64,000 bases of DNA, from positions 23,839 to 87,838 of the forward strand of contig JAJYXV010000015.1 in the NCBI GenBank assembly GCA_021801565.1, written 5' to 3'. Positions 2,151-45,624 of this stretch are shown in pieces (positions within the stretch are counted from its first letter, which is position 1; every line of letters begins with the position of its first letter). The translations under genes and the position numbers were made by a program. The notes below the pieces were generated by a model, which worked only from the letters and a program-made list of their open reading frames with translations, ran no database searches and had not been told where the DNA came from. The stretch comes from a bacterium (lineage in GTDB: Bacteria; Patescibacteriota; Minisyncoccia; UBA6257; GWB1-50-10).

Positions 2151-3239
2151 ATGAAGATTCTTGCGATAGAAACATCGTGTGATGACACGGCAATTGCGCT
2201 CGTGGAGGCGTCAGGCACAATGTCCACACCAAAATTCAAGATTCTAAAGAGTGTAGTATCATCACAAATCAAAATCCATCGCCCGTGGGGTGGTGTGGTT
2301 CCCAACCTCGCAAAGCGTGAGCACATCAAAAATCTTCCAAAGATTTTTGATAAGTTAAAAGTTAAAGGCAAAAAGGCAAAAGTTGATGCAATCTGTGTCA
2401 CCGTCGGACCCGGACTTGAACCGGCACTCTGGGCAGGAATCACATTTGCTAAGGAAATTTATAGACAATTGAAGACTGAAAACCCGACCAAGACGGGCCA
2501 GCCTCAGGCTGGAAAACTAAGGCTTATCGGAGTGAATCACCTGGAGGGACACCTCTACAGTTTTTTGCTCTCACAAAAAACTGTAAATTCTAAACACAAA
2601 ATACTAAATCCTAAATCCTATTCCCCAACCCCCATCTTTCCCGCGATTGCTCTAATTGTTTCTGGGGGACACACCATTCTTCTCAAAATGGACTCGCCTA
2701 TAAAATGGAAAAAACTTGGGGAAACAAAGGATGACGCGGTGGGAGAATCATTCGACAAAGTGGCAAAAATGCTTGGATTTCCCTATCCAGGAGGGCCAGA
2801 GATACAACGCCTTGCCGAGAAAGGAAACCCAAACGCAGTACGATTTCCACGTCCAATGATCGGATCGAAAGATTATAATTTCAGCTATTCGGGACTCAAA
2901 ACCTCTGTACTTTATTACCTCCGCGACAATCCAAAAGCAGAAAAAGAAGATGTAGCAGCAAGTTTTCAAGAAGCGGCACTCGATGTACTCATAAAAAAAA
3001 CCGAGCGGGCAGCACGTGAATATGGTGCAAAATCAATCTTTCTTTCTGGGGGCGTTGCAGCAAATAGTGTGCTTCGTAATAAGTTATTAGTAATTAGTAA
3101 TAAGTTGGGCGCAAATTTCTTTGCGCCACCAATGGATTTTAACACCGATAATGCCGTGATGATTGCGGTTGCGGGATATATGAGTATCCTCCGTAAGAAA
3201 AATAAAAAACTTATTGCGGATGGGAATATGAGGATATAA
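2151..3239 (+). CDS. tsaD: tRNA N6-adenosine threonylcarbamoyltransferase TsaD (Kae1/YgjD)
   Basis: MKILAIETSCDDTAIALV N-terminus, GVNHLEGHL, SGGHT and GGVAAN motifs. It contains an extra insert encoded by TAAATCC repeats. Confidence 0.9.
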   Translation: MKILAIETSCDDTAIALVEASGTMSTPKFKILKSVVSSQIKIHRPWGGVVPNLAKREHIKNLPKIFDKLKVKGKKAKVDAICVTVGPGLEPALWAGITFAKEIYRQLKTENPTKTGQPQAGKLRLIGVNHLEGHLYSFLLSQKTVNSKHKILNPKSYSPTPIFPAIALIVSGGHTILLKMDSPIKWKKLGETKDDAVGESFDKVAKMLGFPYPGGPEIQRLAEKGNPNAVRFPRPMIGSKDYNFSYSGLKTSVLYYLRDNPKAEKEDVAASFQEAALDVLIKKTERAAREYGAKSIFLSGGVAANSVLRNKLLVISNKLGANFFAPPMDFNTDNAVMIAVAGYMSILRKKNKKLIADGNMRI

Positions 3240-5627: not shown

Positions 5628-7811
5628 ATGGAACTTATTACTGGCGCATACGAACCAAAAGAAGCGGAATCGAACATATACGAAAAATGGGAACAATCGG
5701 GATATTTTAATCCAGACAAACTTCCCGGCGAGCGGAATGAAAAATATATTGTCTATATGCCACTTCCCAACGTGACAGGAACACTCCATATGGGACACGC
5801 ACTTGATAATACGCTTCAGGATATTGTTATTCGCTATCATCGAATGAAAGGATATAAAACACTTTGGTTTCCTGGCACCGACCACGCGGGTATTGCAACG
5901 CAGTATGTTGTTGAAAAAGAATTAAAGAAAAGGGGAATAAACCGTTTTGAACTTGGGCGTGAAAAATTTATTGAGAAAATATGGGAGTGGAAAAACAAAT
6001 ACGGAAACACTATTATTGAGCAGTTAAAAAAACTTGGAGTGTCATGTGATTGGTCGCGCATCAGATTCACTATGGACGAGAAATATGCAAAAGATGTGCA
6101 AAATGCATTCGTGCATTACCACGAGAAAGGATTTCTCTATCGTGGAAAACGCGTTGTAAATTGGTGCCCACGCTGTGGTACAAGTCTTTCTGAACTTGAA
6201 CTCGAATATAAAGACGAGAAATCAAAATTGTGGTACATAAAATATAATTTCAAAGATCAAAATTCAAAGATCAAAAGTGTGACTGTTGCAACAACACGAC
6301 CTGAAACAATGTTGGGTGACACCGCGGTTGCGGTACATCCGAAAGATGATCGGTATAAAAATATGATTGGAAAAACTCTTATACTTCCGATTATGCATCG
6401 GGAAATTCCCATTGTTGCTGATGATGCAATAGACATGGAGTTTGGTACGGGTGCGGTCAAAGTTACCCCCGCACATGACATGGTTGATTTTGAAATGGGG
6501 GAGCGACACAAACTTGAAGTAATTCAAGTGATTGATGAACGCGGAAAAATGAATGAAAACGCAGGAATATACAATGAAATGAAAGCGGAAGAGGCACGGG
6601 AAAAGATTGTTGAAAGATTAAAAGGGGAAAAACTTCTTGAAAAAGAGGAGAGCTACGACCACCGGGTCGCGGTTTGCTACCGTTGCGGACACGTGATTGA
6701 GCCGGTTCCCTCACTTCAATGGTTTTTGAGAATGGAAGAACTCGCAAAAAATGCACTTGATGCCGTAAAATCCAAAAAAGTAAAAATCATCCCTAATAAT
6801 TTTGAAAAAAAATATTTCGATTGGCTTGAAAATATCCGCGACTGGACAATCTCGCGTCAGATTTGGTGGGGACACCAAATTCCAGTTTATTTTTGCAAAA
6901 ATAAACTGGAATCAATTTCCAATGAAAATAAAGAAGAGTATGTGGTCTCACTGGAAAGACCAGGAACATGCCCATTTTGTAAAAAATGTGAAATGGAACA
7001 ATCTCCTGATGTGCTCGACACGTGGTTTTCCTCGGCACTTTGGCCGTTTGCAGGACTTTCGGAATCAGATCTCAAAAATTATTATCCAGGAACAACACTT
7101 ATTACCGCGCGCGATATATTAAATCTTTGGGTGGCGCGTATGATTTATTCCGGCATTGAATTTAAAAAAGAACTTCCCTTTACTAACGTATTTATTCACG
7201 GAACGATACTCACCAAAGATGGGAAACGCATGTCGAAAAGTCTTGGCACCGGCATTGATCCGTTGAAATATATTGATCAGTATGGCGCCGACGCAACACG
7301 CTTTGGAATCGTCTGGCAGGCGAGCGGACAAGATATTCGATGGGATGAGACCGCAATTATTGCAGGAAAAAAATTTGCAAATAAATTATGGAACGCGAGT
7401 CGGTTTGTTCTCGCAAACGCTTCGCCAAATGGTATCAGTATAAATCAGCTCAATCCGCATATATCCGCGTCTACGGATGCAGATAAGAAAATTTTAAGGG
7501 CACTTGAGAAAACAAAAGAAAGTATTGAAAGGGATATAAAAAATTTTGAATTTTCGAGACCGCTTCACACCGCATACGATTTTTTCTGGCACGAATTTTG
7601 CGACATTTATCTTGAGATATCAAAGAAACAATTATCTGTCCCGAACGGAAAAGACGAAAACCTGTCGGAAAACACGAAAGCGATACTAATACATGTCCTC
7701 CTCTCTTCCCTTAAAATATTTCATCCCTTCATTCCCTTCATCACTGAAGAAATTTATTCACGTATTCCACTTGAAAACAAAAAAGAATGTCTCATGATTG
7801 AGGAATGGTAA
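5628..7811 (+). CDS. valS: valine--tRNA ligase (short form lacking C-terminal coiled-coil)
   Basis: PLPNVTGTLHMGHA (HIGH) and KMSKSLGTG (KMSKS) motifs, with the ValRS-type N-terminus YEPKEAESNIYEKWEQSGYF. The track start at 5547 is a TTG, so the ATG at 5628 is preferred. Confidence 0.9.
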   Translation: MELITGAYEPKEAESNIYEKWEQSGYFNPDKLPGERNEKYIVYMPLPNVTGTLHMGHALDNTLQDIVIRYHRMKGYKTLWFPGTDHAGIATQYVVEKELKKRGINRFELGREKFIEKIWEWKNKYGNTIIEQLKKLGVSCDWSRIRFTMDEKYAKDVQNAFVHYHEKGFLYRGKRVVNWCPRCGTSLSELELEYKDEKSKLWYIKYNFKDQNSKIKSVTVATTRPETMLGDTAVAVHPKDDRYKNMIGKTLILPIMHREIPIVADDAIDMEFGTGAVKVTPAHDMVDFEMGERHKLEVIQVIDERGKMNENAGIYNEMKAEEAREKIVERLKGEKLLEKEESYDHRVAVCYRCGHVIEPVPSLQWFLRMEELAKNALDAVKSKKVKIIPNNFEKKYFDWLENIRDWTISRQIWWGHQIPVYFCKNKLESISNENKEEYVVSLERPGTCPFCKKCEMEQSPDVLDTWFSSALWPFAGLSESDLKNYYPGTTLITARDILNLWVARMIYSGIEFKKELPFTNVFIHGTILTKDGKRMSKSLGTGIDPLKYIDQYGADATRFGIVWQASGQDIRWDETAIIAGKKFANKLWNASRFVLANASPNGISINQLNPHISASTDADKKILRALEKTKESIERDIKNFEFSRPLHTAYDFFWHEFCDIYLEISKKQLSVPNGKDENLSENTKAILIHVLLSSLKIFHPFIPFITEEIYSRIPLENKKECLMIEEW

Positions 7812-9388: not shown

Positions 9389-9485
9389 TCCTTTTTATGT
9401 AAATATCTGCTTCGAGTATAAACTGAATTTCTCTCCACAGTCAACCAGGGAGTGATCCGCCAACGGGCGGACTACTTCCTGGTCA

Positions 9486-9600
9486 ATCCCGTTAGAGGTC
9501 ACACCCACTCCTTTTATTCCAAAACAAATCAATTTTTTGTAATAGGAGTGGATTATAAAAAATATTTAACTATCTCGTGGTGGGTTATTTCTAACGGGAT
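9486..9600. repeat. inverted-repeat element (ATCCCGTTAGA ... TCTAACGGGAT) enclosing hairpins
   Basis: 11-bp arms at 9486-9496 and 9590-9600. The arm motif is shared with 37209-37327 and 29030-29177. Confidence 0.6.
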
Positions 9601-9609
9601 CAAATTCCT

Positions 9610-17054: not shown

Positions 17055-17252
17055 AAAAATCAAATGTTTCTAATTGGAATAAAATGTTTAACGCTAAACA
17101 TTTTTGCACAAAAAAATATAGAAACGTAGATTTCATCGCATTATCAGGTTTTATAGAAAATGTTTAGCAACAAACATTTTGTGGTCTTAAAAATCAAAAA
17201 TGTAGGTTTCATCGCACTATCGGCTTCTCAAAAAGAGAAGCTGATTTTTTTG
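17055..17252 (+). repeat. two diverged ~85-nt tandem repeat units each with a 10-bp-stem hairpin, ending in a terminator
   Basis: aaaatgtttaacgctaaacatttt paired with aaaatgtttagcaacaaacatttt, and gtagatttcatcgcattatcagg paired with gtaggtttcatcgcactatcggc. They are followed by cttctcaaaaagagaag plus a T run. Confidence 0.6.
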
Positions 17253-26008: not shown

Positions 26009-26048
26009 TTTACTACAGATATAACACAACATCGCCGATCGGCGATGT
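26009..26048. terminator. 40-bp perfect palindrome
   Basis: atataacacaacatcgccgatcggcgatgttgtgttatat. Confidence 0.6.
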
Positions 26049-26078
26049 TGTGTTATATAGAAATTTACTTCTCAAATT

Positions 26079-28979: not shown

Positions 28980-28987
28980 AAAAATTT

Positions 28988-29029
28988 TGGTGCCCTCGAG
29001 AGGATTTGAACCCCAGACCTTCTCGGTTT
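28988..29029 (-). other. tRNA 3'-half-like fragment (T-loop TTCAAAT, ends GGGCACCA)
   Basis: The reverse complement reads AAACCGAGAAGGTCTGGGGTTCAAATCCTCTCGAGGGCACCA. It shares ACCGAGAAGGTC with tRNA-Val and lacks a 5' half. Confidence 0.4.
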
Positions 29030-29177
29030 ATCCCGTACAAATTTTTTGTTTCGCTATATTTATAATATGAATCTAAATATTAATTTGTGGGCACACAAGG
29101 GATTGAACCTTGGACCTTCTCGGTGTAAACGAGACGCTCTACCACTGAGCTATGTGCCCAAAAAATTTGTACGGGAT
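29030..29177. repeat. perfect 18-bp inverted repeat (ATCCCGTACAAATTTTTT / AAAAAATTTGTACGGGAT) bracketing tRNA-Val plus a 40-nt AT-rich spacer
   Basis: Arms at 29030-29047 and 29160-29177. Confidence 0.8.
29088..29159 (-). tRNA. tRNA-Val (anticodon TAC)
   Basis: GGGCACATAGCTCAGTGGTAGAGCGTCTCGTTTACACCGAGAAGGTCCAAGGTTCAATCCCTTGTGTGCCCA forms a canonical cloverleaf. The acceptor pairs GGGCACA with TGTGCCC. Confidence 0.9.
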
Positions 29178-29319
29178 GTAAACGGATTAGTCCTCTCCCA
29201 CTGAGCCCCGCCTGCCGGCGGGCAGGTAAGCGCGCAAAAACTATCATAATCAATTTAACCGAAGTTTATTGAGTATGCAAATATATGATATAATGAACCT
29301 GTAAAAATGTATTAAGTAA

Positions 29320-30000
29320 GTGCAAATCAGAAGTATTATGACCCGTCTAAAAGATAGAGAAAAAGCAATTAAATTACGAAAACAAGGAAAAAGTTACAGC
29401 CAGATAAAAACAATTATTGGCGTGAATAAGGGGACATTAAGTTATTGGCTAAAAGATTTTCCACTTGAAGAAAAACGACTTCGAGAATTGCGAGACTGGA
29501 ATCAAGTGCGTATTGAACACTATCGAAAAACAAGAACTCTAAAAAGAGAAAATATATAAAAAGAAATATATAAAAAACAAAAGAGCGCTATATTTCCACT
29601 CTCTAAAAGAGATCTTTTTATTGCCGGTCTTTTCTTATACTGGGGCGAGGGCTCAAAAACAAGATTTTCAGAACTCGCTGTTGCCAACACGGATCCTTCA
29701 GTGCCAAAATTTTTTATTTATTGGGTCACCGTTTTTTTGGGTATAGAAAAGTCAAAAATAAAAATACACCTTCATCTCTATAGTGATATGAATATAGAAA
29801 ATGAAACGACATTCTGGTCTGAAACATTGAAAATCCAAAAAAAACAATTTATGAAGCCTTATATAAAAGATTCTTTGTTTAAAAAGATTAATCGCGGATC
29901 ATTCGGTCATGGTACTTGCACGATAAGAGTTGGAAATGCTAAAGTTGCTAAAGAAACCTTAATGGGATTAAGGGTGATTCAAGATCATTTCGGCCCGTAG
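29320..30000 (+). pseudogene. HTH + LAGLIDADG-like putative homing-endonuclease/transposase-related gene interrupted by one in-frame TAA (29557)
   Basis: ORFs 29320..29559 and 29701..30000 are in the same frame, and the intervening codons encode KEIYKKQKSAIFPLSKRDLFIAGLFLYWGEGSK... The N-terminal HTH is KAIKLRKQGKSYSQIKTIIGVNKGTLSYWL. The ORF stop overlaps tRNA positions 8-10. Confidence 0.5.
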
Positions 30001-30062
30001 CTCAGTGGTAGAGCAACGCCCTTATAAGACGTGGGTCGCAGGTCCGATCCCTGCCGGGCCGA
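29991..30062 (+). tRNA. tRNA-Ile-like (anticodon TAT), atypical
   Basis: CGGCCCG TA GCTC AGTGGTA GAGC A ACGCC CTTATAA GACGT GGGTC GCAGG TCCGATC CCTGC CGGGCCG A. There is one C-A mismatch in the anticodon stem and an unusual T-loop (TCCGATC). Confidence 0.5.
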
Positions 30063-30063
30063 C

Positions 30064-37184: not shown

Positions 37185-37208
37185 GGATAAAAAGACATTA
37201 AAAAATGA

Positions 37209-37327
37209 ATCCTGTTAGAAATCGCGATCACAAAAATATATCTAACTTAATGTATATAAATATTAGTCGAACAATAATTATCAATCGTAGACCGTGTCGT
37301 TTATTCGCGGTCTATTTCTAACGGGAT
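37209..37327. repeat. inverted-repeat element (ATCCTGTTAGAAAT ... ATTTCTAACGGGAT) ending at the ATG of the 37326 gene
   Basis: 14-bp arms with one mismatch, enclosing the internal hairpin tagaccgtgtcgtttattcgcggtcta. Confidence 0.6.
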
Positions 37328-38639
37328 GAATATTTCAAAACCACAATTTATTATTTTCGCAGTGATTGCTGTGGTTATTCTTGTAATTACCCTTATGGTT
37401 TCCTGTGTTATTCCTGGAATGCAACGATGTGCAAACCCAGGACTCCAAATTGAGGGTACGCTTGATTTTTGGGGAATAGGAGATGACCAAAGTGCATATG
37501 AACCAATTATTACCAACTTCAAAAAACTTTATCCAAAAGTGGAAATAAAATATCGCGGATTCAATACACAAACCGAATATGACCATGCGCTTCTTGAATC
37601 AATGGCACAAGGAAAGGGTCCCGATATATTTATGGTGTTAAATAGTGCTGTTCCAAACAATACGGGAAAAATGTTGCCAATGCCCCAAACACTTATTCCA
37701 TTTGCTCAACTCCAATCCCTTTTTCCAAAGGTAGTGGAACAGGATTTCTTTCCACAACAAACCATATACGGACTTCCACTTTCTATTGATACGCTTGCGC
37801 TTATTTACAATAGAAATTTTATTGATCAAGCCGCGATACAAATACCAAAAACATGGGAGGAATTTCAGGATGTGGTAAAAAAACTTACGATTGTTGACCG
37901 ATCAAAAAAAATTATTCGGGCGGGAGCAGCAATTGGGGGGTCAGCAAAAAATATTTCTACCGCGCCAGATATATTAAGCCTCCTTATGCTTCAAACTGGA
38001 ACAAAAATGATTTCGGATGATTTTCAATCGGCAACATTTGCATCTCCCGAAGGGAAGGACGCGCTCCGTTTTTATACCCAATTCTCAAATGGGACAAGTG
38101 ATACATATACATGGAACGAAACAATGCCGAATGATCTCGACGCATTTGGACAAGAAAATGTTGCAATGATTTTTAATTATGCAAGCGCTCTCCCAGAAAT
38201 ACAAAAACGTAATGCGTTCATCGATTATAAAATTGCACCAATACCACAACCCGCATCGGCAGAAAATCATTCAATTTCGTATCCAAAATACTGGGGGTAT
38301 GCTGTATCGCGACAAAGCAAGACTCCCGATGTTGCTTGGCAATTTGTTCTCTTTATGACCACCGATGAACCCTCGGTAAGGTCTTATCTTACAAAAACAA
38401 AAAAATCTCCAGCACTCGACAATCTTATCCGAAGCGAATATATAAACAATCCGGAACTCGGAGTATTTGCGAGACAAGCGCTTATTGCCCGTTCATGGCC
38501 ACAAATTAATAACATTGCAGTCAATACTATTTTTTCCGACATGATTGAATCTGTTGTTACCAATCAAAGCACTGTTGAATCGGCAATTAATAGGGCACAG
38601 GAAGAGGTGTCACAACTCATGGGCCAGCGGGCATTTTAG
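37326..38639 (+). CDS. ABC transporter extracellular solute-binding protein (sugar family)
   Basis: Signal/TM anchor followed by an SBP_bac_1-like fold (KVEIKYRGFNTQTEYDHALLESMAQGKGPDIFMV). Confidence 0.75.
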   Translation: MNISKPQFIIFAVIAVVILVITLMVSCVIPGMQRCANPGLQIEGTLDFWGIGDDQSAYEPIITNFKKLYPKVEIKYRGFNTQTEYDHALLESMAQGKGPDIFMVLNSAVPNNTGKMLPMPQTLIPFAQLQSLFPKVVEQDFFPQQTIYGLPLSIDTLALIYNRNFIDQAAIQIPKTWEEFQDVVKKLTIVDRSKKIIRAGAAIGGSAKNISTAPDILSLLMLQTGTKMISDDFQSATFASPEGKDALRFYTQFSNGTSDTYTWNETMPNDLDAFGQENVAMIFNYASALPEIQKRNAFIDYKIAPIPQPASAENHSISYPKYWGYAVSRQSKTPDVAWQFVLFMTTDEPSVRSYLTKTKKSPALDNLIRSEYINNPELGVFARQALIARSWPQINNIAVNTIFSDMIESVVTNQSTVESAINRAQEEVSQLMGQRAF

Positions 38640-41070: not shown

Positions 41071-41090
41071 CACTTGAGATATATAAAAAC

Positions 41091-41126
41091 AAAAATCTCC
41101 GCAGAAAACGGAGATTTTTGTTTTTA
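41091..41126 (+). terminator. Rho-independent terminator after pilin array
   Basis: aaaaatctccgcagaaaacggagatttttgtttttat. Confidence 0.8.
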
Positions 41127-41160
41127 TAAAATACCCATGTTATTATCACAAAATAAGATT

Positions 41161-45487: not shown

Positions 45488-45536
45488 GAGTTTCTTCAAG
45501 GTAAAAAACTTAAAAAGTAATAAAAGATTAATAACA

Positions 45537-45568
45537 AAAACCATCCGCCAGCTGGCGGATGGTTTTTG
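45537..45568 (+). terminator. Rho-independent terminator
   Basis: aaaaaccatccgccagctggcggatggttttt. Confidence 0.8.
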
Positions 45569-45624
45569 TGTTTTTATTGCCAAACCGGGTTTTCTATATC
45601 CCGCGCTATGATATAATAGATGCA

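Follow-up and report, generated by a model that had tools for sequence, protein, structure and literature searches.

[quoted passage not shown] They are non-coding, depend on something else to move, are limited to a genus or family, and derive from DDE-type insertion sequences. Rickettsia palindromic elements (RPEs) are likewise palindromic selfish DNA in the reduced genomes of host-dependent bacteria, where they survive by inserting where they do not destroy the host gene. They insert in frame inside coding regions, are translated as part of the host protein, and no coding partner is known for them. In REP/REPIN sequences with RAYT transposases, and in IS200/IS605-derived palindromic elements, hairpin-forming short repeats are mobilised in trans at a short specific target by one small nuclease-type enzyme that recognises DNA structure; this enzyme is a HUH Y1 transposase and no target duplication is left. 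Among GIY-YIG nucleases, free-standing homing endonuclease genes (the phage T4 seg genes and I-TevI) are small selfish genes wedged between host genes, which carry a separate DNA-binding domain and spread only into the cognate empty allele. The UPF0213/YhbQ proteins and the structure-specific nuclease Slx1, which cuts branched and stem-loop DNA, are in contrast single-copy host genes without flanking repeats or mobility. Finally, GIY-YIG-encoding non-intron insertions have been described in CPR rRNA genes (PMC11270868).

We analysed a 64,000-nucleotide stretch of DNA (the window), whose genes are those of a Patescibacteria (CPR) genome: ValRS, MurD, GyrA, a GreA-like protein and T4SS-type pilins. 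Identical proteins lie on contigs of GCA_027423605.1. The inverted repeat at 9486-9600 is a 115-bp non-coding copy of a very small mobile DNA element that is widespread in Patescibacteria, and whose full-length relatives of 279-282 bp carry one 94-95-codon GIY-YIG nuclease gene and usually sit exactly on the start codon of a host gene. By the operational criteria this is a MITE family, although mobilisation in trans by the enzyme of the longer element was not assayed. It differs from the Correia and ERIC families in spanning a whole superphylum, in its exact register with start codons and in having a GIY-YIG nuclease mini-gene as its coding partner, which is unlike that of any insertion-sequence family we know. 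It differs from RPEs in sitting on the start codon and rebuilding it, and from REP/RAYT systems in that the only associated ORF is GIY-YIG (PF01541) and the target bases are duplicated. It shares the catalytic domain of the GIY-YIG homing endonucleases, and the 2-nt stagger with which I-TevI cuts matches the 2-bp GR repeat flanking the element. However, the protein is the catalytic domain alone, its gene is bounded by inverted repeats, copies lie in front of at least 113 different genes, and there are non-coding derivatives; it is therefore not a homing endonuclease in the usual sense. The GIY-YIG insertions in CPR rRNA genes occur in the same organisms, carry the same protein family and are probably the same element family landing in rRNA genes, although identity was not tested. 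That paper does not describe the inverted repeats, the duplicated target, the start-codon placement or the short derivatives, and full-text literature searches, which did not cover subscription journals and so do not exclude a prior description, found no account of the element either. The family appears undescribed.

The features described in a sequence-only reading of the window are all present. The arms ATCCCGTTAGA (9486-9496) and TCTAACGGGAT (9590-9600) are exact inverted copies with 93 nt between them, the interior is AT-rich with a CCACTCC/GGAGTGG hairpin, and a nested hairpin lies just upstream at about 9445-9482. The 14-mer ATTTCTAACGGGAT recurs exactly at 37314-37327 (locus 2). The partner arm of this second copy had been overlooked: ATCCTGTTAGAAAT at 37209-37222 faces it, so that locus 2 is also an inverted-repeat pair, 119 bp long. 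The tRNA-Val gene is flanked by a perfect 19-bp inverted repeat, ATCCCGTACAAATTTTTTG, which starts ATCCCGTAC, at 29030-29048 and 29159-29177. The window holds three inverted-repeat pairs with ATCCCGT... termini. The recurrence of the 14-mer, for which a chance expectation below 1e-3 had been given, is weak evidence by itself, since 4 matches with up to 2 mismatches were found against 1.0 expected, and 4 of 100 shuffles reached 4. The paired geometry, on the other hand, is not due to chance. Folding of the interval, which had been suggested as a check, gave z = -4.8 to -4.9 on both strands for locus 1.

That reading would have failed had the motif been confined to these sites and the arms not been conserved in related genomes. 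Instead, a scan of one genome per species for ATCCCGTTAGA-N75-105-TCTAACGGGAT found the exact 11+11-nt pair in at least 120 genome stretches, nearly all from Patescibacteria, including Saccharibacteria, Parcubacteria, Kaiserbacteria, Nomurabacteria and many other CPR groups. A few came from bins labelled Omnitrophota, Sedimentisphaerales, WOR-3 or Gammaproteobacteria. The head-to-tail junction of the arms occurs in at least 120 metagenome contigs. We estimate about 2 chance hits for the paired pattern in the genome collection. Viral contigs gave 0 hits and the nuclease described below has no PHROG match, arguing against a phage origin. The interiors of the two canonical copies of the window do not align with each other, and this is therefore not a strain-level repeat. 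The arms vary, with ATCCCGTTAGA, ATCCCGTAC, ATCCCCACAC and ACCCCG... among the repeat variants, and generic scans for any inverted repeat of this size, although mostly noise, revealed sister families with other arms. The proposal of a small MITE-like or REP-like family, or of paired binding sites for one protein, is thus only partly supported: MITE-like is right in kind, but the family is neither small nor REP/RAYT-like, paired regulator sites are not needed, and the defining start-codon context had been missed.

To define this context, we analysed the 131 copies in these loci. In 113 of them, one end is placed so that its last two bases (AT) plus the next base (G) form an ATG that opens an ORF of at least 50 codons, with the two strands used about equally. 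Several of the remaining copies are the upstream member of a tandem pair, are cut by a contig end, or precede long ORFs that begin with ATT. The ORFs are real genes, as the 113 proteins hit 145 Pfam families, including DNA topoisomerase, tRNA-synthetase, RRF, SSB, adenylate kinase and ribosomal protein L9 domains, and one starts MKLVIVESPAKAKTI, a typical topoisomerase I N-terminus. When every copy is oriented by its gene, the left flank ends in ATG-R and the two bases on either side of the element match in 89 of 113 copies (GA/GA 67, GG/GG 20, plus single GC/GC and GT/GT cases). The base after the R on the right is A in 93%. Read in register from the two ATGs, the direct repeat is 5 nt (ATGRA) in 59 copies and 6 nt in 25, about what chance extension gives, while it is 3-4 or 7-9 nt in a few. 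About 40% of copies have a TAnnnT box ending 7 nt before the left ATG, which is the geometry of a promoter for a leaderless mRNA. These samples are biased towards intact, young copies by the exact-match searches, and across them the repeat extends to 14 bp, of which positions 12-14 vary among copies, yet 93-96% remain Watson-Crick paired with three or four pair types each, against 41-46% after shuffling. Pairing of the two ends, as a DNA hairpin or cruciform or as RNA, is therefore maintained.

Locus 2 (37209-37327, + strand) fits this description exactly, reading aaaaATGA|ATCCTG...CGGGAT|GAATATT. It is a canonical 119-bp member on the start codon of an ABC substrate-binding-protein (SBP) gene, in which the left arm has one mismatch (ATCCCG in the same-species contig L007; retrieved loci are denoted here by L and a number). 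The left copy of the direct repeat ATGAA (37205-37209, +) is the presumed original start codon and opens a 38-codon upstream ORF (37205-37321, MNPVRNRDHK...AVYF*), which ends at the TAA inside the right arm, 4 nt before the host ATG. The right copy of ATGAA (37326-37330, +) shares its AT with the last two bases of the element, and its ATG is the start codon of the 437-aa SBP gene.

Occupancy, the comparison that had been called for among strains, was then examined in relatives. The gyrA-SBP gene order is conserved, and the element is present in the window and in L128/L129 (SBP 84% identical), there as a 176-nt version with a decayed left flank, an unalignable 5' half and a conserved 3' half. 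It is absent in L130/L131 (79%) and L132 (73%), where only 4-6 nt separate the gyrA stop from the SBP start. This empty site is not clean, as L130 reads ATGTCA where ATGAATATTTCA would be expected. At locus 1, in the spacer between murD and a gene for a 118-aa protein, the element is present in the same-species contigs L001/L002 and in L135 (MurD 86% identical), and absent from the orthologous spacer in L134 (87%) and L136 (59%). The empty site of L134 (...GGGATTGACCG...) holds one TTGA and reads ...AATAATGGGA-TTGA-CCGAAGAGAGATATTCAGT-TATACT, that is, the -35 (TTGACC) and -10 (TATACT) of the downstream gene's promoter, and the same TTGACC-17-TATACT arrangement is seen in L136. The window reads ...AATTTGA|TCCCG...CGGGA|TTGACC. 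TTGA is therefore duplicated and the -35 box is rebuilt on the gene side.

The upstream copy of TTGA lies at 9600-9603 (- strand; TCAA on the + strand), where its first base, read on the + strand, overlaps the last base of the repeat as originally drawn, and the second lies at 9483-9486 (-), between the 115-bp element and the nested hairpin. The element was assigned to the - strand by inference, since on that strand the flanks read TTGA, as in the family's ATGA, and the element is co-directional with the downstream gene. The nested hairpin (9445-9482) is a second, unrelated 38-bp palindrome (CCAGG-GAGTGA-TCCGCC-aacg-GGCGGA-CTACTT-CCTGG). It is also an insertion relative to L134 and L136, is again flanked by (G)TCAA = TTGA(C), and in its entirety occurs only in this species among the DNA examined. 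As a result, TTGA occurs three times on the minus strand (9603-9600, 9486-9483, 9444-9441). The last copy is part of the promoter-like site of the 118-aa gene (9415-9444, -), which consists of the -35 TTGACT (9444-9439), an 18-nt spacer and the -10 TATACT (9420-9415). Further signs of recent movement were found elsewhere in the family: L077 has two near-identical copies in front of unrelated genes, and head-to-tail arrays (TCTAACGGGAT-N0-8-ATCCCGTTAGA) are common, with GA or its complement TC as the usual spacer.

Many neighbours of these junctions were not short elements. Directly after a left arm came an ORF beginning MFYVYV..WYTG, and directly before a right arm came an ORF ending ...LKSGMGKRYLKNRLKRFLSLTG*, whose last codons are the arm itself (TTC CTA TCT CTA ACG GGA TGA). 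Extraction of all arm pairs 200-800 bp apart gave a tight class of 279-282 bp that holds one ORF, whereas no autonomous element of 1-3 kb was found in 1 Mb of loci. In most intact copies the frame is open from the flanking ATG (ATG AAT CCC GTT AGA = MNPVR) to the TGA formed by the element's last T plus the duplicated GA, and in some copies the internal Met is missing, so that the flanking ATG must be the start. The first and last codons of the gene are the 14-bp terminal inverted repeats: ATG A|ATCCCGTTAGAnnn ... nnnTCTAACGGGAT|GA. The protein has the GIY-YIG catalytic domain (Pfam PF01541, E = 1e-17). Its nearest solved relatives are the UPF0213 proteins BH0048 and EF2693 (1zg2, 1ywl), followed by SLX1 and the I-TevI catalytic domain; the match to I-TevI is weak, as is that to the group I intron endonuclease model, which is below its cut-off. 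At least 3310 protein clusters match at E <= 1e-10, and the best hits are almost all 94-95 aa and 69-82% identical, with invariant MxPVRD...FLSLTG ends. L257, which was reached through the protein and not through the repeat, shows the same layout inside an operon, ...TATT ATGA|ATCCCGTTAGAGAT...ATCTCTAACGGGAT|GAATAC, with the next gene called 4 nt before the nuclease's stop (ATGA). Frameshifted copies and exact tandem duplicates also occur, as expected for selfish DNA.

The short copies share with the long ones the 14-bp termini and the orientation relative to the host gene. Strand-specific words in their interiors include GGGAT (20 sense to 0 antisense), ACGGAAA (12:0) and TTTCCTA (13:0). Read against L257, ACGGAAA and TTTCCTA fall in the codons for LRKR and FLS of the nuclease, while GGGAT is consistent with the codons of the conserved YTG motif in some copies, although it is not in L257 itself. 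In the gene, the LRKR codons (ACGGAAACGCC) are complementary to the C-terminal codons (GGCGTTTCCT), and deleting what lies between them yields the hairpin that many short copies carry just before the right arm. Overall interior similarity is weak, however, as 8 of 115 give blastn hits and the shift in similarity is modest. A derivation from the long form therefore rests mainly on the shared termini; it is likely but not proven for every copy, and short copies could partly be decay products formed in place rather than copies moved in trans.

We conclude with fair confidence that 9486-9600 is a non-autonomous, internally reduced copy of a selfish DNA family that pervades Patescibacteria. The analysis itself establishes a mobile family with duplicated target bases at (A/T)TGR(A) sites, its position on start codons, the empty sites in relatives, the termini shared with the nuclease gene, and the ORF with its stop/start overlap, whereas how the element moves and how its genes are expressed is our inference. 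In this view, insertion at a gene start would let the host's own promoter, ribosome entry and ATG drive the nuclease ORF, the element's terminal AT plus the duplicated G recreates the host's ATG, and terminating ribosomes would restart there by stop-start coupling, which would make the insertion nearly harmless and explain the preference for ATGA (72%). Short copies of 100-127 bp keep the repeats and fragments of the ORF and carry no gene. The nuclease would move both long and short copies, probably by staggered 2-nt cuts at the base of the hairpin or cruciform formed by the repeats and at AT^GR, followed by joining; the 2-nt 3' overhangs of I-TevI are of this pattern, and the activity of Slx1 on branched and stem-loop DNA would suit an element whose ends form a hairpin. 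Alternatively, cleavage of ATGRA sites could be followed by repair that copies an existing element through the 5-nt microhomology, which would explain the variable repeat length and the imperfect empty site at locus 2. Several facts weigh against the nuclease as the mover: no GIY-YIG protein is known to act as a transposase in prokaryotes, this one has no DNA-binding domain, a repeat of 3 to 9 nt does not fit a fixed staggered cut, and no nuclease gene lies in the 64-kb window, it being unknown whether this genome has one. In short copies the transcript carries a long leader hairpin that pairs the AU of the start codon, and we did not establish how such genes are translated. The 38-codon upstream ORF of locus 2 could open the hairpin and deliver ribosomes, but such ORFs are intact in only 29 of 100 copies, the open frame is only modestly commoner in sense than in antisense (28 against 18 of 88), and the peptides are unrelated beyond MNPVR.

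Within this family, locus 1 is atypical in its position. It has the same arms, but it landed in the TTGA of the -35 box of a promoter rather than at ATGA on a start codon, and its repeat mismatches at positions 12-13. A second small palindrome later entered the same TTGA. The copy has no obvious coding or regulatory role and is otherwise an ordinary, probably inert member; what it has visibly done is to displace and then rebuild the -35 box. The third pair (29030-29177, -) is a 148-bp relative with GTAC-type arms that encloses a complete tRNA-Val(UAC) gene (29087-29159) and lies between tRNA-like half fragments. It shows no clean target duplication, and we have no explanation for its origin. 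An intron in a split tRNA was considered, but ARAGORN with introns allowed finds only tRNA-Val, and joining the outer tRNA-like halves gives inconsistent low-stringency calls. GTAC-armed copies elsewhere (L237, L206) are ordinary start-codon elements.

A host cis-regulatory RNA, in which the repeat forms a 5'-leader hairpin that hides the AU of the start codon and acts as a thermometer, a protein-controlled switch or through melting by an upstream ORF, and is inherited because it is useful and not because it moves, is the least unlikely of the alternatives but still improbable. The hairpins are stable (dG -32 to -38 kcal/mol, z -3.5 to -4.9), the stem covaries, the orientation relative to the gene is fixed in about 90% of copies, the -10 box before the left ATG implies that the element is transcribed as a leader in about 40% of copies, an internal CGGGAT motif complementary to the left arm is enriched (10 observed against 1.2 expected), and 29 of 100 upstream ORFs run through to the right arm. 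However, only three tRNAs in the window reach their Rfam thresholds and nothing appears at any of the three loci even at E up to 10, the downstream genes are functionally unrelated and form no regulon, and the element is present or absent between close relatives at the same gene. The duplicated target bases, the tandem arrays and a protein-coding version with frameshifted copies are hallmarks of a mobile element, the upstream peptides are not conserved, and locus 1 itself is not at a start codon. Relics of nuclease codons also explain the internal motifs better than CsrA-like GGA sites or a decoy for the left arm. Regulation can still be true as a secondary effect of the insertions.

We consider it unlikely, too, that a conserved host tyrosine or serine recombinase integrates and excises the element with the GIY-YIG gene as a mere passenger. 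Joined head to tail, the arms do form a dif-like site of 10-11-bp inverted arms around a 6-bp centre (TTCTAACGGG-ATGAAT-CCCGTTAGAA), the 5-nt direct repeat resembles a shared crossover region, an asymmetric centre would explain the fixed orientation, and a tyrosine recombinase gene lies in the window's neighbourhood and is syntenic in relatives. Yet 68 junctions have a recognisable partner arm on both sides, as expected for two abutting elements, those without one on a side are explained at least in part by a full-length GIY-YIG unit or its ORF end lying there, and no clear solitary dif-like site was identified. The targets share only ATGRA, far less than such recombinases normally need, and the only gene ever carried, that of the nuclease, is under strong purifying selection, at 69-82% identity across clusters, which is unexpected for a passenger. 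Paired operators or an invertible switch, in which a DNA-binding protein would bind the two arms and loop or invert the roughly 100-bp segment to switch the downstream gene on and off, are very unlikely. Inverted repeats flank an AT-rich segment upstream of genes and a minority of copies have the interior reversed (for example L029, L046, L074, L080), but the seven same-species contigs from different samples (L001-L007) all carry the window's orientation, read-level data being unavailable, and promoter-like sites are not clearly in excess in sense over antisense (38 against 24 of 113). Neither the duplicated bases, the start-codon register nor the coding version would be accounted for. An integron attC site was also excluded, as the order read from the sequence is GTTAGA ... 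TCTAAC on either strand, the reverse of the 5'-RYYYAAC ... GTTRRRY-3' core geometry, and no integrase context was seen.

Patescibacteria have some of the smallest and most gene-dense bacterial genomes. Even so, housekeeping genes, those matching DNA topoisomerase, tRNA-synthetase, RRF, SSB and adenylate kinase families, tolerate a 100-280-bp palindromic insert exactly at their start codon. The elements create false or shifted gene starts and mis-annotated 'excinuclease ABC subunit C' calls, put long hairpins in the leaders of essential mRNAs, and may account for the unexplained GIY-YIG insertions in CPR rRNA genes. Some Saccharibacteria can now be grown and genetically manipulated (PMC10187176), which makes the idea directly accessible to experiment. 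It is possible, although we hold this only tentatively, that the 279-282-bp units are autonomous transposable elements whose only protein is a 95-aa GIY-YIG nuclease. Their strategy would be a start-codon parasitism, in which the element borrows the host gene's promoter, ribosome entry and ATG for its own ORF and then hands ribosomes back through the ATGA overlap. If the nuclease really moves the element, a new enzyme class would join the prokaryotic transposases, defining a new chemical class of prokaryotic transposon and by far the smallest autonomous one, with the lower size limit for an autonomous mobile element dropping to about 280 bp, and the family would show a way for selfish DNA to colonise streamlined genomes without killing genes.

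Besides the inverted-repeat element at locus 1, a 38-bp nested palindrome (CCAGG..TCCGCC-aacg-GGCGGA..CCTGG) was found at window positions 9445-9482, with flanks at 9441-9444 and 9483-9486. This palindrome is a separate insertion into the same TTGA of the promoter -35 box, and it is absent from L134 and L136, the two related loci that lack the element. Simpler TCCGCC-N3-6-GGCGGA hairpins recur 35 times in about 2 Mb of CPR loci and may form another repeat family. The window also contains several perfect palindromes of 17-21 bp per arm with a loop of 0-7 nt, located at 2041-2082, 6879-6912, 26019-26058, 41082-41128 and 45534-45569. Some of them end in A/T runs, and they are probably bidirectional terminators. 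Finally, two copies of a 24-bp palindrome-like box (AAAATGTTTAACGCTAAACATTTT and AAAATGTTTAGCAACAAACATTTT) at 17081-17104 and 17157-17180 lie 76 bp apart and look like paired operator sites.

In L128, a related locus, the ortholog of the element at window locus 2 occupies positions 2827-3002 and is 176 nt long, with an extra hairpin (CCTGCCCGAAAGAATGAATTCTTTCATTCAGGCGGG) nested just before its right arm. The 3' half of its interior (AGTCGAAyAATAATTAT plus a hairpin) is conserved with the window, while the 5' half is unalignable.

Among the collected loci, we also identified sister families of similar size but with different arms (ATCCCCACAC..., ACCCCGCCC..., ACCCCGTTAGA...), at L024 1759-1901, L028 3623-3728, L065 2620-2790, L126 3379-3492, L127 1000-1110 and L080 at about 3884. 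Where the arm begins with AC and ends with GT, the right end followed by G reads GTG in place of ATG. In that case, the terminal pair of the stem changes together with the first base of that codon. A different situation was observed in three copies, those of loci L022, L025 and L118, where the end of the element is followed by T rather than G, giving ATT in front of long ORFs of 449, 226 and 244 codons, respectively. ATT may serve as a start codon there. Locus 1 likewise reads ATT, followed by a 32-codon frame.

The region around the tRNA genes of the window showed additional features. The tRNA-Ile at 29991-30063 has the anticodon UAU, which is unusual, as most bacteria read AUA with a modified CAU tRNA. 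An ORF with a LAGLIDADG-like motif (LFIAGLFLYWGEGSK) spans positions 29338-29991, where it is interrupted by one in-frame TAA at 29557-29559 and runs right up to the first base of the tRNA-Ile (29991). This may relate to the intron and homing-endonuclease biology reported for tRNA genes of Patescibacteria (PMC13011429).

The element enclosing tRNA-Val is itself flanked on the outside by tRNA-like fragments, at 28985-29029 and 29178-29215 on the minus strand. One of these is a convincing 3' half with T-arm, acceptor and encoded CCA (...GGTTCAAATCCTCTCGAGGGCACCA), which shares ACCGAGAAGGTC with tRNA-Val, while the other is a D-arm-like 5' piece (GCTCAGTGGGAGAGG). The two pieces joined together gave no consistent tRNA call. 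The element may have disrupted an older tRNA-Val copy and may now carry the working one.
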